This document shows, piece after piece, positions 183 to 63,559 of a DNA stretch of 64,000 nt. The notes below the pieces were generated by a model, which saw only the letters and a program-made list of their open reading frames with translations, was not told the DNA's origin and did no database searches. Made by a program: the position numbers and the translations under genes. Source of the DNA: Leucoraja erinacea (taxonomy: Eukaryota); the NCBI RefSeq assembly GCF_028641065.1, contig NC_073382.1, forward strand, positions 82,522,001 to 82,586,000. Direction: 5' to 3'. The stretch's first letter is position 1. Each line of letters opens with the position of its first letter.

Positions 183-3100
183 TAGAATATACATCTCTAT
201 GGTAGAATGGAAAGTAATCAAAATGTGCGTTTAAAAAGTGCCTGCGAGTTAATGGACCAAACAGATCTAAGCTACATTTTAATATAAAATTGGATACATG
301 TAAGCCTAGAAGGAACAAATGTAAAAAACAATAATTTAATTAACTAGAGCCTGGAAAACCAATTGGCGAAAAACCAGTCATGGGTGCTTTGGCTTGAAGT
401 TGATAGGCACTACTTACTGCAAATGGAGGCGTGGGTGTACTGGCATGAAGTTGAAAGGCACTACTTACTGCAAATGGTGGCATGTAGTTGAAAGGCAATA
501 CTTACTGCAAATTGTGGCTTGGGTGCTTTGGCTTGAAGTTAAAAGGCACTACTTACTGCAAATGGTGCCTTGGGAGCTTAGGTTTGAAGTTGAAAGGCAC
601 TACTTACTGCAAATGGTGGCTTGGGTGCTTTGGCTTGAAGTTGAAAGGCGCTACTTACCGCAAATGGTGGCTTGGATGCTTTGGCTTGAAGTTGAAAGGC
701 ACTACTTACTGCAAATGGTGGCTTGGGTGCTTTGCTTGAAGTTGAAAGGCACTACTTACTGCAAATGGTGGCATGAAGTTGAAAGGCACTACTTACTACA
801 AATGGTGGCTTGGGTGCTTTGGCTTGAAGTTGAAAGGCACTACTCACTGCAAATGGCGGCGTGGGTGCATTGGCTTGCAGTTGAAAGGCACTACTTACTG
901 GTGGCAAATGGTGGCATGAAGTTGAAAGGCACTACTTGCTGCAAATGGTGGCTTGGGTGCTTTGGCTTGAAGTTGAAAGGTACTACTTACCGCAAATGGT
1001 GGCGGGAGCTTTGGTTTGAAGTTGAAAGGCACTTCTTACTGCAAATGGTGGCTTGGGTGCTTTGGCTTGAAGTTGAAAGGCACTACTTACTGCAAATGGT
1101 GGCATGTAGTTGAAAGGCACCACTTACTGCAAATGGTGGCTTGGGTGCTTTGGCTTGAAGTTGAAAGGCACTGCTTACTGCAAATGGTGGCTTGGGTGCT
1201 TTGGCTTGAAGTTGAAAGGCACTACTTACCGCAAATGGTGGCGTGGATGCTTTGGCTTGAAGTTGAAAGGCACTACTTACTGCAAATGGTGGCTTGGGTG
1301 CTTTGCTTGAAGTTGCACTACTTACTGCAAATGGTGGCATGAAGTTGAAAGGCACTACTTACTACAAATGGTGGCTTGAGTGCTTTGGCTTGAAGTTGAA
1401 AGGCACTACTTACTGCAAATGGTGGCATGAAGTTGAAAGGCACTACTTGCTGCAAATGGTGGCTTGGGTGCTTTGGCTTGAAGTTGAAAGGTACTACTTA
1501 CTGCAAATGGTGGCTTGGGTGCTTTGGTTTGAAGTTGAAAGGCACTACTTACTGCAAATGGTGGCTTGGGTGCTTTGGCTTGAAGTTGAAAGGCACTACT
1601 TACTGCAAATGGTGGCGGGGGTGCTTTGGCTTGAAGTTGAAAGGCACTACTTACTGCAAATGGTGGCTTGGGTGCTTTGGCTTGAAGTTGAAAGGCACTA
1701 CTTACTGCAAATGGTGGCATGAAGTTGAAAGGCACTACTTACTGCAAATGGTGGCTTGGGTGCTTTGGCTTGAAGTTGAAAGGCACTACTTACTGCAAAT
1801 GGTGGCTTGGGTGCTTTGGCTTGAAGTTGAAAGGCACTACTTACTGCAAATGGTGGCATGAAGTTGAAAGGCACTACTTACTGCAAATGGTGGCTTGGGT
1901 GCTTTGGCATGCACTTGAAGTTGAAAGGCACTACTTACTGCAAATGGTGGCTTGGGTGCTTTGGCTTGAAGTTGAAAGGCACTACTTACTGCAAATGGTG
2001 GCATGAAGGCTTGAAGTTGAAAGGCACTACTTACTGCAAATGGTGGCTTGGGTGCTTTGGTTTGAGTTGAAAGGTACTACTTACTGCAAATGGTGGCTTG
2101 GGTGCTTTGGTTTGAAGTTGAAAGGCACTACTTACTGCAAATGGTAGCTTGGGTGCTTTGGCTTGAAGTTGAAAGGCACTACTTACTGCAAATGGTGGCA
2201 TGAAGTTGAAAGGCACTACTTACTGCAAATGGTGGCTTGGGTGCTTTGGCTTGAAGTTGAAAGGCACTACTTACTGCAAATGGTGGCGTGGGTGCTTTGG
2301 CTTGAAGTTGAAAGGCACTACTTACTGGAAATGGTAGCTTGGGTGCTTTGGCTTGAAGTTGAAAGGCACTACTTACTGCAAATGGTGGCTTGGGTGCTTT
2401 GGCTTGAAGTTGAAAGGCACTACTTACTGCAAATGGTGGCTTGGGTGCTTTGGCTTGAAGTTGAAAGGCACTACTTACTGCAAATGGTGGCTTGGGTGCT
2501 TTGGCTTGAAGTTGAAAGGCACTACTTACTGCAAATGGTGGCATGAAGTTGAAAGGCACTACTTACTGCAAATGGTGAATTGGCTTGAAGTTGAAAGGCA
2601 CTACTTACTGCAAATGGTGGCATGAAGTTGAAAGGCACTACTTACTGCAAATGGTGGCTTGGGTGCTTTGGCTTGAAGTTGAAAGGCACTACTTACTGCA
2701 AATGGTGGCGTGGGTGCATTGGCGTGAAGTTGAAAGTCACTACTTACTGCAAATGGTGTAATGAAGTTGAAAGGCACTACTTACTGCAAATGGTGGCTTG
2801 GGTGCTTTGGCTTGAAGTTGAAAGGCACTACTTACTGCAAATGGTGGCTTGGGTGCATTGGCTTGAAGTTGAAAGGCACTACTTACTGCAAATGGTGGCA
2901 TGAAAGTTGAAAGGCACTACTTACTGCAAATGGTGGCTTGGGTGCTTTGGCTTGAAGTTGAAAGGCACTACTTACTGCAAATGGTGGCGTGGGTGCGTTA
3001 GCTGAGGTTGAAAGGCATTACTTACTGCAAAGGGTGAAAAAGGCACTACTTACTGCAAATGGTGGCTTGGGTGCTTTGGCTTGAAGTTGAAAGGCACTAC

Positions 3101-4683
3101 TACTTACTGCAAATGGTGGCGTGGGTTCATTGCTTGAAGTTGAAAGGCACTATTTGGCATGAAGTTGAAAGGCACTAGGCACGTCAAACGGTGGTTTGGG
3201 TGCTGTGGCTTGAAGTTGAAAGGCACTATTTACTGCAAATGGTGGCTTGGGTGCTTTGGCTTGAAGTTGAAAGGCACTACTTACTGCAAATGGTGGCTTG
3301 GGTGCTTTGGCTTGAAGTTGAAAGGCACTACTTACTGCAAATGGTGGCTTGGGTGCTTTGGCTTGAAGTTGAAAGGCACTACTTACTGCAAATGGTGGCT
3401 TGGGTGCTTTGGCTTGTAGTTGAAAGGCATTACTTATTGAAAATGGTGGCTTGGGTGCTTTGGCTTGAAGTTGAAAGGCACTACTTACTGCAAATGGTGG
3501 CATGAGGTTGAAAGGCACTACTTACTGCAAATGGTGGCTTGGGTGCTTTGGCTTGAAGTTGAAAGGCACTACTTACTGCAAATGGTGGCTTGGGTGCTTT
3601 GGCTTGAAGTTGAAAGGCACTACTTACTGCAAATTGTGGCTTGGGTGCTTTGGCTTGAAGTTGAAAGGCACTACTTACTGCAAATGGTGGCTTGGGTGCT
3701 TTGGCTTGAAGTTGAAACGCACTACTTGCTGCAAATGGTGGTGTGGGTTAATTGGCATGAATTTGAAAGGCACTACTTACTGCAATTGGTGGCTTGGGAG
3801 CATTGGATTGAAGTTGAAAGACTTCTTACTGCAAATGGTGGCTTGGGTGGTTTGGCTTGAAGTTGAAAGGCACTACTTACTGCAAATGGTGGAATGAAGT
3901 TGAAAGGCACTACTTACTGCAAATTGTGGCTTGGGTGCTTTGGCTTGAAGTTGAAAGGCACTACTTACTGCAAATGGTGGCTTGGGAGCTTTGGTTTAAA
4001 GTTGAAAAGCACTTCTTATTGCAAATGGTGGCTTGGTGGCTTGGGTGCTTTGGCTTGAAGTTGAGAGGCACTACTTATTGCAAATGATGGCTTGGGTGCT
4101 TTGCCTTGAAGTTGAAAGGCGCTACTTACTGCAAATGGTGGCGTGTGTGCTTTGGCTTGAAGTTGAAAGGCACTACTTACTGCAAATGGTGGCTTGGGTG
4201 CTTTGCTTGAAGTTGAAAGGCACTACTTACTGCAAATGGTGGTTTGGGTGCTTTGGCTTGAAGTTGAAAGGCACTACTTACTGTAAATGGTGGCTTGGGT
4301 GCTTTGGCTTGAAATTGAAAGGCACTACTTACTGCAAATGGTGGCTTGGGTGCTTTGGCTTGAAGTTGAAAGGCACTACTTACAGCAAATGGTGGGTTGG
4401 GTGCTTTGGCTTGATGTTGAAAGGCACTACTTACAGCAAATGGTGGGTTGGGTGCTTTGGCTTGATGTTGAAAGGCACTACTTACTGCAAATGGTGGCGT
4501 GGGTGTATTGGCATGAATTTGAAAGGTACTAATTACTGCAAATGGTGGCATGAAGTTGAAAGGCACTACTTACTGCAAATGGTGGCTTAGGTGCTTTGGT
4601 TTGAAGTTGAAAGGCACTACTTACTGCAAATGGTGGCTTGGGAGCTTTGGTTTTAAGTTGAAAAGCACTTCTTACTGCAAATG

Positions 4684-5139
4684 TCGTCAGCAGCGGCCTC
4701 GGCAGCCCGTCTGCGTTTTTATTATTTTTTGTCTTTGTTTTTATGTAGTTTTTGTTATTTTTTGTTGTGGTGTGTGTGTGGGGGGGGTGGGGGTGGAGTG
4801 GGTGGGAGGGAGTAACGTTTAATCTCCCCCTGCATGGGAGACCCGACCTTTTCTTTGTCGGGTCTCCGTTGTCGTTGGGGCTGCAACGAGGAGCGGCCTC
4901 CAACAGGAAGACCGGGGGCTCTGGTGCCGACTACTCACCTCACCGTCGCGGAGCTGGCCGAGTCGAGAGCGGGTGGAGCGCTGCTGCGGCCCGACCTCCG
5001 TGGAGAGATAAGTTTTTTTGGCCTTCCATCACAGCAATGTGATGGATGTTTATGGGAAATTATGTTGTGTCTTGGGTCTATTTGTTTGTAATGTATGGCT
5101 GCAGAAACGTCATTTCGTTTGGACCTCAAGGGGTCCAAA
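4684..5139 (+). mobile_element. Non-LTR-type interspersed repeat inserted in the satellite (copy 1, internally deleted)
   Basis: Starts TCGTCAGCAGCGGCCTC; near-identical to 6795-7135; its 3' part matches 29910-30060, which ends in a (TCTTGA) tail. Confidence 0.7.
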
Positions 5140-6794
5140 NNNNNNNNNNNNNNNNNNNNNNNNNNNNNNNNNNNNNNNNNNNNNNNNNNNNNNNNNNNNN
5201 NNNNNNNNNNNNNNNNNNNNNNNNNNNNNNNNNNNNNNNNNNNNNNNNNNNNNNNNNNNNNNNNNNNNNNNNNNGAAGTTGAAAGGCGCCTTACTACTTA
5301 CTGCAAATGGTGGCATGAAGTTGAAAGGCACTACTTACTGCAAATGGTGGCTTGGGTGCTTTGCCTTGAAGTTGAAAGGCACTACTTACTGCAAATGGTG
5401 GCGTGGGTGCTTTGGCTTGAAGTTGAAAGGCACTACTTACTGCAAATGGTGGCTTGGGAGCTTTGGTTTTAAGTTGATAGGCACTTCTTACTGCAAATGG
5501 TGGTTTGGGTGCTTTGGCTTGAAGTTGAAAGGCGCTACTTACTGCAAATGGTGGCATTAAGTTGAAAGGCACTACTTACTGCAAATGGTGGCTTGGGTGC
5601 TTTGCCTTGAATTTGAAAGGCAGTACTTACTGCAAATGGTGGCGTGGGTGCTTTGGCTTGAAGTTGAAAGGCACTACTTACTGCAAATGATGGCATGAAG
5701 TTGAAAGGTACTACTTACTGCAAATAGTGGCTTGGGTGCTTTGGCTGGAGGTTGAAAGGCACTACTTACTGCAAATAGTGGATTGTGTGCTTTGCTTGAA
5801 GTTGAAAGGCGCTACTTACTGCAAATGGTGGCTTGGGTGCTTTGACTTTAAGTTGAAAGGCACTACTTACTGCAAATGGTGGCACGAAGTTGACAGGCAC
5901 TACTTACAGCAAATGGTGGCTTGGGTGCTTTGGCTTGAAGTTGAAAGGCACTACTTACTGCAAATGGTGGCTTGGGTGTTTTGCTTGAAGTTGAAAGGCA
6001 CTACTTACTGCAAATGGTGGCGTGGGTGTATTGGCTTGAAGTTGAAAGGCACTACTTACTGCAATTGATGGCTTGGGAGCATTGGCTTGAAGTTGAAAGG
6101 CACTACTCACTGCAAATGGTGGCTTGAATGCTTTGGCTTGAAGTTGAAAGGCACTACTTACTGCAAATGGTGACGGGTGCATTGGCTTGAAGTTGAAAGG
6201 CATTACTTACTGCAAGTGGTGGCTTGGGTGCTTTGGCGAAGTTGAAAGGCACTACTTACTGCAAATGGTGGCATGAAGTTGAAAGGCACTACTCACTGCA
6301 AATGGTGGCTTGGATGCTTTGGCTTGAAGTTGAAAGGCACTACTTACTGCAAATGGTGTCGTGAGTGTATTGGCTTGAAGTTGAAAGGTTCTACTTACTG
6401 CAAATTGTGGCATGAAGTTGAAAGACACTACTTACCGCAAATGATGGCTTGGGAGCTTTGGTTTGAAGTTGAAAGGCACTACTTACTGCAAATGGTGGCG
6501 TGGGTGTATTGGCTTTAAGTTGAAAGGCATTACTTACTGCAAATGGTGGCTTGGGAGCATTGGATTGAAGTTGAAAGACTTCTTACTGCAAATGGTGGCT
6601 TGGGTGGTTTGGCTTGATGTTGAAAGGCACTACACTGCAAATGGTGGCTTGGGTGCTTTGGCTTGAAGTTGAAAGACTTCTTACTGCAAATGATGGCTTG
6701 GGTGGTTTGGCTTGAAGTTGAAAGGCACTACTTATTGCAAATGGTGGCTTGGGAGCTTTGGTTTTAAGTTGAAAGGCACTTCTTACTGCAAATG

Positions 6795-7488
6795 TCGTCA
6801 GCAGCGGCCTCTGCAGCCCATCTGCGTTTTTATTATTTTTTGTCTATGTTTTTATGTAGTTTTTGTTTTTTTTTGTTGTGGTGTGTGTGTGTGGGGGGGG
6901 GGGGGGGGGGGGGGGGTGGGGGGTGGGAGGGAGGGAGTAACTTTTAAATCTCCCCCTGCACGGGAGACCCGACCTTTTCTTTGTCGGGTCTCCGTTGTCG
7001 TTGGGGCTGCAACGAGGAGCGGCCTCCAACAGGAAGACCGGGGGCTCTGGTGCCGACTACTCACCTCACCGTCGCGGAGCTGGCCGAGTCCAGAGCGGGT
7101 GGAGCGGTGGTGGAGCGCTGCTGCGGCCCGACCTCCAGAGATTCGGAGGCTGCAACTGCGGGTCTGGCGGACGGCGGCACTGGGAGCCCGCGGGTCCCTG
7201 GAGGGAGACCGCTTTTCAGGGCTCCCGCAATGGTGACTTCTCCCGCCCGAGTTGCGGGGTCAAAGAGCTCCTGGAGCGGGGCCTTACAGCACCACCCCGC
7301 GCGGCTTGGAATGGCCGCGGGACTCTGCGAGCGCACGCCGGGGGCTCTAACATCAAGAACCCGGTGTGCGACCTTGCATCACCCGGCGTGGCTTTAATGG
7401 CCGCGGGACAATCGCCATCGCCAGCCGGGGGCTTTGACTTTGACTCTGGGGGGGGGGGGGGGGGGGGGGGGGGATGCAGTGGAGAGAT
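6795..7488 (+). mobile_element. Same interspersed repeat (copy 2, lacking the 3' tail)
   Basis: Same left junction as copy 1; 7340-7488 matches 29775-29920. Confidence 0.7.
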
Positions 7489-8830
7489 GCTTTGACTTTA
7501 AGTTGAAAGGCACTACTTACTGCAAATGGTGGCACGACGTTGACAGGCACTACTTACTGCAAATGGTGGCATGAAGTTGAAAGGCACTACTCACTGCAAA
7601 TGGTGGCTTGGGTGCTTTACCTTGAAGTTGAAAGGCTCTACTTACTGCAAATGCTTGAAGTTGAAAGGCACTACTTACTGCAAATGGTGGCGTGAGTGTA
7701 TTGGCTTGAAGTTGAAAGGCTCTACTTACTGCAAATGGTGGCATGGAGTTGAAAGGCACTACTTACTGCAAATGGTGGTGTGGGTGCTTTGGCTTGACGT
7801 TGAAAGGCGCTACTTACTGCAAATGGTGGCATGAAGTTGAAAGGCATGACTTACTGCAAATGGTGGCTTGGGTGCTTTGCCTTGAAGTTGAAAGGCACTA
7901 CTTACTGCAAATGGTGGCTTGGGAGCTTTGGCTTTAAGTTGAAAGGCACTACTTACTGCAAATGGTGGCACGAAGTTGACAGGCACTACTTACTGCAAAT
8001 CGTGGCTTGGGTGCTTTGGCTTCAAGTTGAAAGGCACTACTTGCTGCAAATGGTGGCGTGGGTGCTTTGGCTTGACGTTGCAAGGCGCTACTTACTGCAA
8101 ATGGTGGCATGAAGTTGAAAGGCACTACTTACTGCAAATAGTGGTTTGGGTGCTTTGGCTTGAAGTTGAAAGGCACTACTCACTGCAAATGGTGGCTTGG
8201 ATGCTTTGGCTTGAAGTTGAAAGGCACTACTTACTGCAAATGGTGGCGTGAGTGGCTTGAAGTTGAAAGGCTCTACTTACTGCAAATGGTTGAAAAAGGC
8301 TCTACTTACTGCAAATGGTGGCCTGAGGTTGAAAGGCACTACTTACTGCAAATGATGGCTTGGGTGCTTTGGCTTGAAGTTGAAAGGCACTACTCACTGC
8401 AAATGGTGGCTTGGGAGCTTTGGCTTGAAGTTGAAAGGCACTACTTACTGCAAATGGTGACTTGGGTGCTTTGGCTTGAAGTTGAAAGGCACTACTTACT
8501 GCAAATGGTGACTTGGGTGCTTTGGCTTGAAGTTGAAAGGCATTACTTACTGCAATTGGTGGCATGAAGTTGAAAGGCACTACTTACTGCAAATAGTGAC
8601 TTGGGTGCTTTGGCTTGAAGTTGAAAGGCACTACTCACTGCAAATGGTGGATTGGGAGCTTTGGCTTGAAGTTGAAAGGCACTACTTACTGCAAATGGTG
8701 ACTTGGGTTATTTGGCTTGAAGTTGAAAGGCACTACTTACTGCAAATGGTGACTTGGGTGCTTTGGCTTGAAGTTGAAAGGCACTACATACTGCAAATGG
8801 CGGCTTGGGTGCTTTGGCTTGAGGTTAAAA

Positions 8831-9799
8831 CGCAGTACTGCAAATGCACTTACTTCCTGTTTGCACTGTCTATTGATTTTAGATAAAACGCTAGCCACTT
8901 AAGGCTGTGATTTTTGGCCATCTTACTCACTCCCCCCTCCGCTAAGCAGGTGCAGAGAATTCTTCCCTTCAATGAAAAATAAAAGTGTTATTAGTGTTAA
9001 AAAATGTTGAGAATCTCTCTCCTGTCAATCACACCATGAAAGCCACACCTTTTCCGGTGAGAGGGGGGGGGAGTTATAAAACCCGGAATTGTGGGTGTGG
9101 CTCAGTCTCTGCATGATGGTGGAGGGAGAGGTCATGACTCTGTCTGAGCTGTGAATCAACTGAGCACACTGAATGTCTGCTGAACTGTGAGTTTGGTGTT
9201 TTGTGTGGTTTTATGGTGGTTTCACCCTGTATGAAATGGTATGAAGATGCATTTGAATTTGATGGCCTTGCACCCTGCTTGAAGTGGAATGAAACTGCAC
9301 TTGAATTTTGCGGCCTTGCATCCTGCTTGAAGTGGTATGAAACTGCACTGAATTTGGTGGCCTTGCACCCTGCTGAAAGTGGTATGAAACTGCTCTTGAA
9401 TTTGGTGGCCTTGGATCCAGCTTGAAGTGGTATGAAACTGCACTTGAATTTGGTGGCCTTGCACCCTGCTCATAGTGGTAAGAAACTGCACTTGAATTTG
9501 GTGGCCTTGCACCCTGCTCGAAATGGTAGGAACATGGATTTGAATTTGGTGGCCTTGCACCCTGCTTGAAATCCAATTTCAAGGAATAGTCATGAGAACT
9601 GCCAGTCCACCAGCCGTGAGTGAGCTGCCAGCAGATCAGGCTTGAGGGACTGAGCTGCCACCCCAAGAACCCATACCAGCACTCCACAAAGCCCCCCCAC
9701 TGGCCACCAATATTGGAATTGGTGGAGAGGTGGAATATTGCGTCGGGGGACCAGCCCTCCCGTGTGAACATGGGACCCAACGGGTCCCACTTAGTCTAG
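8831..9799 (+). mobile_element. 3' portion of non-autonomous Helitron A (the satellite upstream is probably internal to it)
   Basis: Ends with hairpin TGGGACCC-AAC-GGGTCCCA (9771-9789), then CTAG (9796-9799) followed by T, the canonical Helitron 3' terminus. No Rep/helicase ORF seen. Confidence 0.75.
9225..9570. repeat. 48-bp minisatellite (~7 copies)
   Basis: Unit GAAATGGTATGAAACTGCACTTGAATTTGGTGGCCTTGCACCCTGCTT; further copies at 10665-10835. Confidence 0.9.
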
Positions 9800-12152: not shown

Positions 12153-12353
12153 TCACTCTGCTCCACTCGTCACCTCCAGGCTCGAGGCTGGGGCCGTCTC
12201 TGGCACTGGGGCCGCCTGGGCCACCTCTGCTGCTCTCCTCTCGTATTCCGCCAGCCGTTTCTGCACGATCGCCGGCATCAGCTGCACGTATGCGCCCATC
12301 AGCCGGTGATTGGTACGGATCAGCTTCCCCGCACACCCATTGATGCAGCTCTC
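12153..12353 (-). CDS. TIMM10B: TIMM10B (Tim9b/FXC1) coding exon 3
   Basis: Acceptor tctag|GAG; encodes [66 protein letters not shown], with the second CX3C; matches recalled human [33 protein letters not shown]. Confidence 0.95.
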
Positions 12354-15842: not shown

Positions 15843-16530
15843 CGTTTAAAAAACAGTTAGACAGGTACATGGATAGGTCAAGTTAGGAGGGATATGGACC
15901 AAGCGCAGGCAGGTGGGACAAGTGTAGCTGGGACATGTTGACTGTTGTGGGCAAGTTGGGATGAAGGGCCTGTTTCCATGCTGTATCACTCTGTGACTCA
16001 AAACTGAATGTTAAAAAAAAACGGAACTTCAATCCTTTGTCTCACCTTCTGTTTTTCCATCTCTGGTCCAATCCTCTACTTAACATTAATCAATAATGTT
16101 TTATTATTGTTTAATGTTTAATGTATCATTCTTAACTGTCACTGTATGTCATGTTGTCACTTGTGGACGGAGCACCAAGGCAAATTCCTTGTATGTGAAT
16201 ACTTGGCCAATAAACTTATTCATTCATCAAACTGCATCCAATGTTCACATATCACCTGCCACACTTTGTCCTGTCCTGTCCCTTTCCTCTTCCAGCTTCT
16301 CTCCCTCCAGAAGGGTCTTAACCCAAAACATCACCTATCCATGTGTACAGTTACTGCCCGACCCACTGTTACTCCAGCACTTTGTGCCTTTTTATGTAAG
16401 TCAGCATCTGCAGTTGCTTGTATCTGCATGCGGTGTTAAAGTGGCATGACGGTAAGCAGAGACATGATGGGCAGAAGGCCTGTTCCTGTGGCCACTCTTC
16501 CATGTACGTGTGAGGGTGTGGGGTCGTTAC

Positions 16531-60126: not shown

Positions 60127-61742
60127 CAGTGGCTTGCAAAAGTATTCATACCCCTTGAACTTTTCCACATTTTGTCACGTTACAACCACAAACGTAAATG
60201 TATTTTATTGGGATTTTATGTGATAGACCAACACAAAGTGGTGCATAATTGTGAAGTGGAAGGTAAATGATACATGGTTTTCAAATTTGTTTACAAATAA
60301 AAAACTGAAAAGTGTGGCGTGCAAAAGTATTCAGCCCCCCTGAGTCAATACTTTGTAGAACCACCTTTTGCTGCAATTACAGCTGCAAGTCTTTTGGGGT
60401 ATTTCTCGACCAGCTTTGCACATCTAGAGACTGACATTTTTACCCATTCTTCTTTGCAAAATAGCTCAAGCTCAGTCAGATTGGATGGAGAACGTCTGTG
60501 AACAGCAATTTTCAAGTCTTGCCAGAGATTCTCAATTGGATTTAGGTCTGGACTTTGACTGGGCCATTCTAACACATGAATATGCTTTTATCTAAACCAT
60601 TCCATTGTCGCTCTGACTGTATGTTTAGGGTCGTTGTCCTGCTGGAAGGTGAACCTCCGCCCCAGTCTCAAGTCTTTTGCAGACTCTTAACAGGTTTTCT
60701 TCCAAGATTGCCCAGTGTTTGGCTCCATCCATCTTCCCATCAACTCTGACCAGCTTTGCTGTCCCTGCTGAAGAAAAGCATCCCCACAGCATGATGCTGC
60801 CACCACCATGTTTCACAGTGGGGATGGTGTGTTCAGGGTGATGTGCAGTGTTAGTTTTCCGCCACGCATAGCGTTTTGCATTTAGGCCAAAAATGTCAAT
60901 TTTGGTCTCATCTGACCAGAGCATCTTCCTCCACATGTTTGCTGTGTCCCCCACATGGCTTGTGGCAAACTGCAAACAGGACTTCTTATGGCTTTTTTTC
61001 AACAATGGCTTCCTTCTTGCCACTCTTCCATAAAGGCCCGATTTGTGGAGTGCACGACTAATAGTTGTCCTGTGGACAGATTCTCCCACCTGAGCTGTGG
61101 ATCTCTGCAGCTCCTCCAGAGTTACCATGGGCCTCTTGGCTGCTTCTCTGATCAATGCTCTCCTTGCCCGGCCTGTCAGTTTAGGTGGACGGCCATGTCT
61201 TGGTAGGTTTGCAGTTGTGCCATACACTTTCCATTTTCGGATGATGGATTGAACAGTGCTCTGTGAGATGTTCAAAGCTTGGGATATTTTTTTATAACTT
61301 AACCCTACTTTAAACTTTTCCACAACTTTATCCCTGGCCTGTCTGGTGTGTTCCTTGGGCTTCATGATGCTGTTTGTTCACTCATGTTCTCTAACAAACC
61401 TCTGAGGCCTTTACTGAACAGCTGTATTTATACTGAGATTAGATTACACACAAGTGGACTTTTTACTAATTATGTGACTTTTGAAGGCAATTGGTTGCAC
61501 TGGATTTTATTTAGGGGTATCAGAGTAAAGGGGGCTGAATACTTTTGCACGCCACACTTTTCAGTTTTTTATTTGTAAAAAATTTTGAAAACCATGTATC
61601 ATTTTCCTTCCACTTCACAATTATGCGCCACTTTGTGTTGGTCGATCACATAAAATCCCAATAAAATACATTTACGTTTGTGGTTGTAACGTGACAAAAT
61701 GTGGAAAAGCTCATGGGGTATGAATACTTTTGCAAGCCACTG
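60127..61742 (-). mobile_element. Full-length Tc1 (DD34E, Passport/Eagle-like) transposon
   Basis: TA|CAGTGGCTTGCAAAAGTATTCATACCCC ... GGGGTATGAATACTTTTGCAAGCCACTG|TA; ~210-bp IR/DR-type TIRs; 1616 bp. Confidence 0.97.
60345..61365 (-). pseudogene. Tc1 transposase, inactivated
   Basis: MKPKEH...GRPPKL...WSDETK...FQQDNDPKH...[11 protein letters not shown]...GGSTKY*; +1 frameshift near 60690 and an in-frame TAA near 60589. Confidence 0.93.
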
Positions 61743-62569
61743 TATATCTTAATTTCATTGAACCAAATACTTGGTTGAATATGTGGCATTATTTTCATCT
61801 TGTTTATATAGTCAAAGGGTGAGGTTGATTGATTAATTTATTTGTGCAGAACAGTGATGGTAGTCTGACTCCTCTTGCCTTTCTATGGGGTTTTTTCTCT
61901 ATATATATGCATAACAGCATGAATTATAATCTGATTTCCATACATGAATATACTAAGGTCATTCATGTGCTGCACCTGTTGATCAGAGTGTGGCTCTATT
62001 GTGGAATGTAATTAGGAATGTAATTTAGCCTAACCTTATTCATACCTAATCCAATTTAAAGCATAAATGTTGCATTCAAATGTAAGTTAAAAGACTCGCT
62101 ACAGAATGCACCAGATTGCACAATTTCAAGCTGGAAAATGCAAAAGCTCCCCACCGTAGGAGGGGTGGACAACCCCCCTCGCCCCTCCTCCCCCCCCCCT
62201 CCCCTCAGTCGCTATGCTCCCTCACAATTTTTCACTCTCAACTTTCACCCAATGTTGCCAGCCCTGGGATGGGAGGTTAGTTTGTGGGATGGTCTGGGCT
62301 GCGTCCACAACTCTCTACAATTTCCTGTGGTCTTGGATGGAGCTGTTCCTACTGTTCCCTTGTGTGTTGGTGGGGAGGGGGGGTGAGAGCAGAGCTACGA
62401 GAGGAGATGGGGGTGAGGGATCCATCTGCGATATGTTATGGTGTTGTTCCTGTGACGCAGGTTTCTGGTCCGGGGAGAGTTGGTGACTCTGGTGACGGGA
62501 TGAGGATCGCTCGGCCAACTGGTTGTTGGATTCTGACTAACCGCAGCGAAGCAGTCAACGGAGCAGGTC

Positions 62570-62950
62570 TCAGTCACCATGACAACAGAGAAGGCCTCAG
62601 TCACCATGAAAACGAAGCAGGGCCCGGTCACCATGACAACAGAGCAGGCCCCGTTCACCATGGAAATGGAGCAGACCCCGGTCACCATGACAACAGAGCA
62701 GGCCCCGGTCACCATGAAAACGGAACAGGCCCCGGTCACCATGACAACAGAGCAGGCCTCGGTCACCATGACAACAGAGCAGGCCCCGGTCACCATGGAA
62801 ACGGAGCAGGCCCCGGTCACCATGACAACAGAGCAGGCCCCGGTCACCAGGGAAATGGAGCAGGCCCCAGTCACCATGACAACAGAGCAAGCCCCGGTCA
62901 CCATGAAAACGGATGGAACAGGCCCCGGTTACCGTGACAACGGATCAGAT
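62570..62950 (+). repeat. 27-bp minisatellite (13-14 units)
   Basis: Unit GTCACCATGACAACAGAGCAGGCCCCG; reads MTTEQAPVT in one frame. Confidence 0.95.
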
Positions 62951-63484
62951 CCCAGTAGTCGTGGTAACGCCACCAGATTTGGATTCTACACATTTGTTCC
63001 CACAAAACGGTCCTGGAGAATCGGCAAACTCTCCGGCACCACCCTCTGACCCCGGTAACCACGGGCAACAGTCCTCTGACCCCGATCCCAGTTGCCAAGG
63101 ACCTGCTCCCCCTCCCCCCTCCCCCCCCCTGCTCCTCCTCCCCCCACCCCCCCCTCTCCCCTCCCCCCCCCCCCCCCCTCCTCCTCCCCCTCCCCTCCCC
63201 CCTCCTCCTCCCTCCTCCCCCCACCCCCTCCCCCAGGCCTCCCCCCAGCGTCCGGCTTGCTCCGGCGATCGGCCCCGGCCCGACGTTCCCGCTTGCGCCG
63301 CTTTAACTGGGACGCCTTGCCGCAGCACCGTGTGGTGGGCCGGCAGAACATCTGGACAACGCAGACAGATGTTGCGCACATCGCCATCGACACCAGCAGA
63401 ATGGAGGAGCTGTTCGCCAGCAGCCAGGCCAAGGGGGTCCAGCCTACACGACAACCCTCCCCCCAGCGGGGAACCCGCACCGAG
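62913..63484 (+). CDS. FHDC1/INF1-family formin, first coding exon (FH1 poly-Pro and start of FH2). Start codon uncertain (62579 or 62913); apparent frameshift in the poly-C tract
   Basis: Poly-Pro, then RRSRLRRFNWDALPQHRVVGRQNIWT...IDTSRMEELF, matching the recalled FHDC1 pattern RMRSFFWKTIP...GKTNIWT...IDTKTIEELF; donor GAG|gtgagt at 63485; probable acceptor cgcag| at 62460. Confidence 0.82.
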
Positions 63485-63559
63485 GTGAGTGGGGGTCATC
63501 ACCCGAGGGGGAGGGAAGGGTGGAGATGGGGCTGCGAGAGGGGAGGGGGTCATGAGTTC

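Follow-up and report, generated by a model that had tools for sequence, protein, structure and literature searches.

The described systems closest to the locus analysed here are the X-box of RFX factors (JASPAR MA0600.1; GTNRCC-N0-3-RGYAAC), which occurs as one or two copies near a transcription start site (TSS); the FHDC formins, of which mammalian FHDC1/INF1 has been connected with cilia length (PMC6080654); VNTRs that carry transcription-factor sites, for example MNS16A with its GATA1 sites (PMC5438627); and exonic enhancers (eExons) or duons, in which a coding exon doubles as a regulatory element (PMC4745165). The locus lies in a 64,000-nucleotide stretch of the skate Leucoraja erinacea (contig NC_073382.1; hereafter the window, in whose coordinates all positions are given). 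It is likewise a repeat that multiplies a predicted transcription-factor site, in a probably coding exon that may be regulatory, and in the skate both features would coincide in one coding VNTR of predicted RFX sites, with 11–15 tandem copies in a likely coding exon as against the one or two of the known X-box arrangement. A literature search, which left most subscription journals outside its reach, turned up neither an X-box minisatellite nor a coding VNTR made of RFX sites, and nothing on this skate gene or on RFX sites in FHDC3/4.

The repeat is a 27-bp minisatellite at 62556..62981 (+), comprising 13 canonical units with starts at 62573 + 27n, preceded by a partial unit and followed, in register, by degenerate ones at 62928 and 62955; it reads (VTMTTEQAP)n ... 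VTVTT ... VVVVT, and TRF delimits it as 62556–62948 (period 27, 14.4 copies, 81% matches). The pattern GTHNYYATRRNAAC is matched by 11 of the 13 units, seven of which carry GACAAC, three GAAAAC and one GGAAAC; the two off-consensus units start at 62654 and 62843. This recount confirms what the sequence-only reading had claimed about the X-box consensus. Each of these 11 X-box-type 14-mers (62573..62910, +) lies over the codons V-T-M-[TKE]-T and contains an in-frame ATG. Elsewhere in the window the pattern occurs just once, at 58476, as a palindrome. Since the copies in the array descend from one site, they are not eleven independent observations, and what has to be weighed against chance is one site, amplified.

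Predicted site strength was scored with the ChIP-derived JASPAR RFX2 matrix MA0600.1, taken from the supplement of PMC5838959 with its T row partly rebuilt from column totals. The three common unit forms (GACAAC, GAAAAC and GGAAAC) reach 17.1, 14.0 and 17.3 bits, with relative scores of 0.89–0.94 and p of ~1e-6 to 9e-6 per position, and the two off-consensus units reach 8.4 and 11.3 bits. All 13 units pass the 80% JASPAR threshold (0.82–0.94), 11 of them with at least 0.89. Nine validated human X-boxes span 7.0–21.1 bits on the same matrix; the RFX matrix scan that had been suggested earlier thus places 11 of 13 units, at 14–17 bits, within the validated human range. Outside 62570–63105 the top site of the window has 12.4 bits. 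The units also share with the X-box the form of a 14-bp imperfect inverted repeat, here with an AT spacer. They differ from it in their right half, where GACAAC or GAAAAC misses the strict RTNRCC-N1-3-RGYAAC consensus, of which the array has no match; several validated human X-boxes in the PMC5838959 supplement miss it as well. Judged from the letters, the units are strong sites on paper and are predicted to bind RFX. We take GTCACCATG to resemble a start-codon context, which would supply half of the motif without any involvement of RFX.

Further RFX-type sites follow the array. The two that had been pointed out before fared differently: 62928 is a full site of 13.3 bits on the RFX2 matrix, whereas 63091..63096 (−) is a half-site only, with a relative score of 0.94 on the RFX5 matrix. 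The in-register degenerate unit at 62955 scores 10.3 bits (RFX2). At 63055..63069 (+) stands an X-box with a 3-base spacer, overlooked at first, which is the only strict-consensus match at this formin gene; it is out of the V-x-M-x-T coding register, being read as GNHGQQ.

The gene downstream is a formin, as had been proposed. An FH1 polyproline tract (63104..63244, +), in whose first C-runs the window has two more C than the single contig of sequencing run X1 that reaches them, stands directly before the start of an FH2 domain (63281..63484, +), so that FH1 and FH2 lie near the N-terminus. The FH2 piece ends at a GT donor at 63485; over its final 28 residues it shows 100% identity with the initial residues of XP_055493567.1, the L. 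erinacea FHDC1-like RefSeq model, which begins MEELF, downstream of the array. The profile PF02181 matches this partial exon with E=2.8e-4, under the curated cut-off. An FH2 tree (57 rows) divides the vertebrate sequences into three clades, namely FHDC1 (9 rows, a mammal among them), FHDC2 (13 rows) and FHDC3/4 (30 rows). XP_055493567.1 falls inside the 30-row FHDC3/4 clade (SH-aLRT 97), together with sharks, rays and a chimaera; the 11 best panel matches of the window's own FH2 piece are all in that clade; and forcing the skate protein into the FHDC1 clade is rejected (AU p=0.00035, 34 rows). The array gene is therefore a skate member of FHDC3/4, not FHDC1. It follows that the cilia result on mammalian FHDC1, which the sequence-only reading had invoked, concerns a paralog, not an ortholog, albeit one of the same family and domain order. 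No mammalian FHDC3/4 member is among the named matches listed.

The neighbouring genes help to place the formin as a paralog of FHDC1. Upstream of it lie a TIMM10B exon (12156–12353, −; PDB 7cgp_J, E=7e-17) and arfaptin-2-like exons (34452–45101, +; Pfam Arfaptin, PDB 1i49/4dcn). We take human FHDC1 to adjoin ARFIP1, and ARFIP2 to adjoin TIMM10B, so that the skate neighbourhood would be paralogous to that of human FHDC1. Database names are unreliable in this family: a Xenopus laevis protein called FHDC1 groups in the FHDC2 clade. Several shark and ray FHDC3/4 models, including XP_055493567.1, start within FH2 (MEELF or MGTQ), their N-terminus and FH1 probably missing, and the C-terminal half of XP_055493567.1 contains a proline-rich tandem repeat.

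Whether the array is translated turns on the reading frame. The first array ATG (62579) and the FH2 start (63281) are in one frame, and the window's two shifts amount to +4 and +2 bases. The first consists of four extra bases at 62911..62914 (+), and the second lies in the C-tract, so that as assembled the array frame is broken twice. Four runs out of 24 listed, X1, X5, X6 and X24, were compared with the window over 62870–63101. One X1 contig spans 62896–63099 with the four bases as its sole gap. Its loose end, which is two C shorter than the window, reads cleanly as polyproline, and it is from 30 letters of this contig that the second shift is deduced. An X5 contig, too, is without the four bases, up to 62951. 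X6 leaves them out as well, but there the missing bases belong to an internal unit with a further unit behind it, which leaves X1 and X5 as the only tests of the terminal junction. X6 is an RNA run by guess only, and the RNA run X24, of which ~5% was read, gave no reads on 62870–63101. Given that the two shifts sum to six bases and are absent from contigs of other runs, they are probably assembly errors; the four bases could also be a private allele. In the X1 contig the open frame of the array is continuous with the gene as far as the FH1 start. Thus the array is probably coding, as (VTMTTEQAP)n at the N-terminus of the formin, a view built on DNA contigs, and this supports the earlier suggestion that it may double as coding sequence. 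The skate RefSeq model would then lack its N-terminus and FH1, probably because of the assembly frameshifts.

Alternatively, the array could be non-coding, either 5′ UTR or an internal promoter, with translation starting downstream as in the RefSeq model. Besides the broken frame and the MEELF start of that model, this reading can draw on an in-frame stop at 62534, upstream of the array, and, as weak evidence, on a search of 7353 candidate proteins in which the array peptide had no match at E<=1e-5. A second stop-free frame, (HHDNRAGPG)n at 62499–62937 (+), opened by an ATG at 62500, also counts against coding in the first; should the exon start ahead of 62500, this second frame would make an upstream, overlapping ORF. 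We nevertheless hold a non-coding array to be unlikely: the frame breaks are absent from the X1 and X5 contigs, the period of 27 bp is a multiple of three, the 12 units that it spaces at nine codons are stop-free in the (VTMTTEQAP)n frame, the unit resembles the N-terminal peptide of orthologs, and ~12 in-frame ATGs would capture scanning ribosomes. The context of the array ATGs is presumably that of the Kozak consensus.

Three other candidates were rejected. A 'MEQAP' start at 62913 fails since its ATG overlaps the four extra bases; the alternative frame PVTTGN...VAKDLL is contradicted by the X1 contig, which has no indel there and places polyproline in the other frame; and the Pfam matches of the array peptide (DUF6470 and others) are under the cut-off and compositional.

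The unit peptide probably predates the repeat. Like the skate gene, the FHDC3/FHDC4 formins (zebrafish fhdc3; the FHDC1-like proteins of amphibians and coelacanth) have FH1 then FH2 near the N-terminus and a VxM[VT]T peptide. In amphibian FHDC3/4 with an intact N-terminus, MVT is found within the first 30 residues in 20 of 20 rows and V[STA]MVT in 13 of 20; these rows, chosen by taxon name, come from related animals and do not count as independent (P0130, a Pleurodeles protein with a different N-terminus, was left out and P0266 used). The coelacanth has VTMVM and the paddlefish VIMVI, and lizards and one shark begin MVT, with one copy of the peptide before FH1. A looser motif is present in 26 of 90 FHDC3/4 N-termini (amphibians, coelacanth, paddlefish, lizards and one shark), with teleosts making up most of the misses, as opposed to 0 of 27 in FHDC2 and 0 of 23 in FHDC1. 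Tandem copies were found in none of the sampled FHDC3/4 orthologs, only in the skate, the other batoid and shark models having either no N-terminus or a short one. Since the orthologs carry a single V[STA]MVT-like peptide before FH1, the skate array is likely an amplification of that segment. We envisage that a skate ancestor had one string of codons for the N-terminal V[STA]M[VT]T peptide, and that slippage or unequal exchange made further copies of it. The expansion may have been tolerable, as a 27-base period leaves the frame intact and orthologs differ greatly in the length of the pre-FH1 region. Its outcome would be a longer, Thr/Glu/Pro-rich N-terminus with ~12 in-frame ATGs, which makes staggered starts possible.

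The array appears to be shared among runs and variable in its units. The distinctive tail of the second unit is present in runs X1, X5 and X6, which bear three species labels, and X6 and X1 have internal unit types that are missing from the window. Thus the array is common to these runs and differs among them in unit content.

Selection on the protein could explain the repeat if it made a short linear motif, conserved at the N-terminus of FHDC formins, multivalent, the likeness to an X-box being incidental. A short hydrophobic motif is indeed retained at the N-terminus in each of the three vertebrate FHDC clades, with a conserved peptide peculiar to each. However, the skate units turn the fourth residue of the motif from V into T, K or E, synonymous changes are not in excess among the unit variants (4 of 14 vs 25% expected), and the literature gave neither a partner nor a function of the motif. 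We regard this explanation as improbable.

The same T/K/E variants, radical for the peptide and yet keeping the consensus, speak for selection at the DNA level. An ancestral exonic X-box would have been preserved in this way, and its multiplication in skates would have produced a homotypic RFX enhancer which, while still coding, increases or adjusts expression of the gene. V-[ATS]-M-V-T has codings that form RFX2 sites of 18–21 bits, and only ~3% of the synonymous codings of VTMTT reach 17 bits, the skate having 17.1 of a possible 17.9. Of the third codon positions, none of the 3 in the box varies, against 4 of the 5 in the spacer (p=0.07), with two of the four confounded by lying at CpG. Furthermore, the strict X-box at 63055 and the half-site at 63091 are out of coding register, and 62900–63110 holds five canonical half-sites vs 0.3 expected; upstream 211-bp windows (at 16320, 21480 and 24350, the latter two in or beside 66-bp tandem repeats) nevertheless reach four RFX-type half-sites each.

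Expression data from other vertebrates bear on this scenario in both directions. An FHDC1-labelled Xenopus gene is reported as a direct RFX2 target, with log2FC −3.6 (a ~12-fold drop without Rfx2) and a ChIP summit at JGIv6.000045932:829626, within the gene span (PMC3889689), though this gene may belong to another FHDC clade than the skate one. An FHDC1-labelled Xenopus locus is in the core multiciliated-cell list of PMC5245798, while another such frog locus, from an egg library, was not induced by multicilin in the same dataset (log2FC −0.06 and 0.35). Mouse Fhdc1 is modestly down in Rfx2−/− ependymal cells (logFC −0.66; PMC7498320), but mouse RFX peaks are distal only, at +44 to +175 kb, and the testis table of PMC4498915 marks Fhdc1 only in its CREM column. 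Functional human X-boxes lie mostly <500 bp from the TSS (PMC5838959). Zebrafish fhdc3 is described as exclusively maternal and as required where yolk and blastodisc meet (bioRxiv 2021.02.19.432057), which we count against real use by RFX. All in all, a multiplied RFX enhancer kept by selection is possible, but it is not what we expect. In its farthest-reaching form, an RFX X-box would have sat in the first FHDC3/4 codons since early jawed vertebrates, fixing V[STA]MVT from the DNA side, and skates would have amplified it ~14-fold into a coding VNTR whose repeat count sets RFX occupancy, start-codon number and N-terminal length together; we put this forward tentatively, and doubt it rather more than we believe it.

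To the reading that the array is a coding minisatellite which RFX can likely bind, and whose multiplication is an unselected by-product of repeat expansion, not a selected dosage switch, we give an even chance. The arguments just given for a selected enhancer tell against the by-product part of it. What speaks for unselected copy number is that the N-terminal peptides of FHDC1 (VSLVS-like) and FHDC2 (MTVATK-like), similar as they look, cannot spell a strong X-box: 0 of 50 reach 17 bits by any coding. The amphibian and coelacanth peptides are compatible with X-box coding. The one ortholog DNA, a teleost fhdc4-like locus (L001, the single confirmed locus among 152 pattern matches of a metagenome scan), has no site of at least 7 bits within ~950 bases of the ATG, which also counts against an ancestral box kept by selection. 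Within the array, 5 of 14 box columns vs 9 of 13 spacer columns are variable, a difference that is not significant (p=0.09–0.17), and some box variants among the units damage the RFX site. X-box-coded peptides in FHDC tails number 0–2 per class and are uninformative. In Drosophila, degenerate X-box matches alone failed to predict RFX dependence (PMC2375033), and in C. elegans two X-boxes at one gene were not simply additive (PMC3245922).

If functional, the array would offer a natural allelic series for asking whether an exonic transcription-factor site constrains protein sequence over deep time, a test of whether a coding repeat acts as a regulatory dial, and a tie between a little-studied formin paralog and the RFX programme. 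Should it have no function, it would serve as a warning that one V-x-M-x-T codon string plus slippage can yield a striking but empty homotypic cluster.

Upstream of the array, 49600–49820 (+) is a CpG-richer, non-repeat stretch with a TGAGTCA motif and, at its end, a donor-like CAG|GTAGAC junction, followed by a 14-bp repeat. It may represent a non-coding first exon, with ~12.7 kb between it and the array. The window also contains a Pfam-confirmed Tc1/mariner (Sleeping Beauty-type HTH) transposase remnant at 60345–61377 (−), what looks like a related decayed Tc1/mariner copy at ~46560–48430, and a large satellite at 390–8839, with mixed 51-bp and 37-bp units over ~8 kb, interrupted near 6800–7500.
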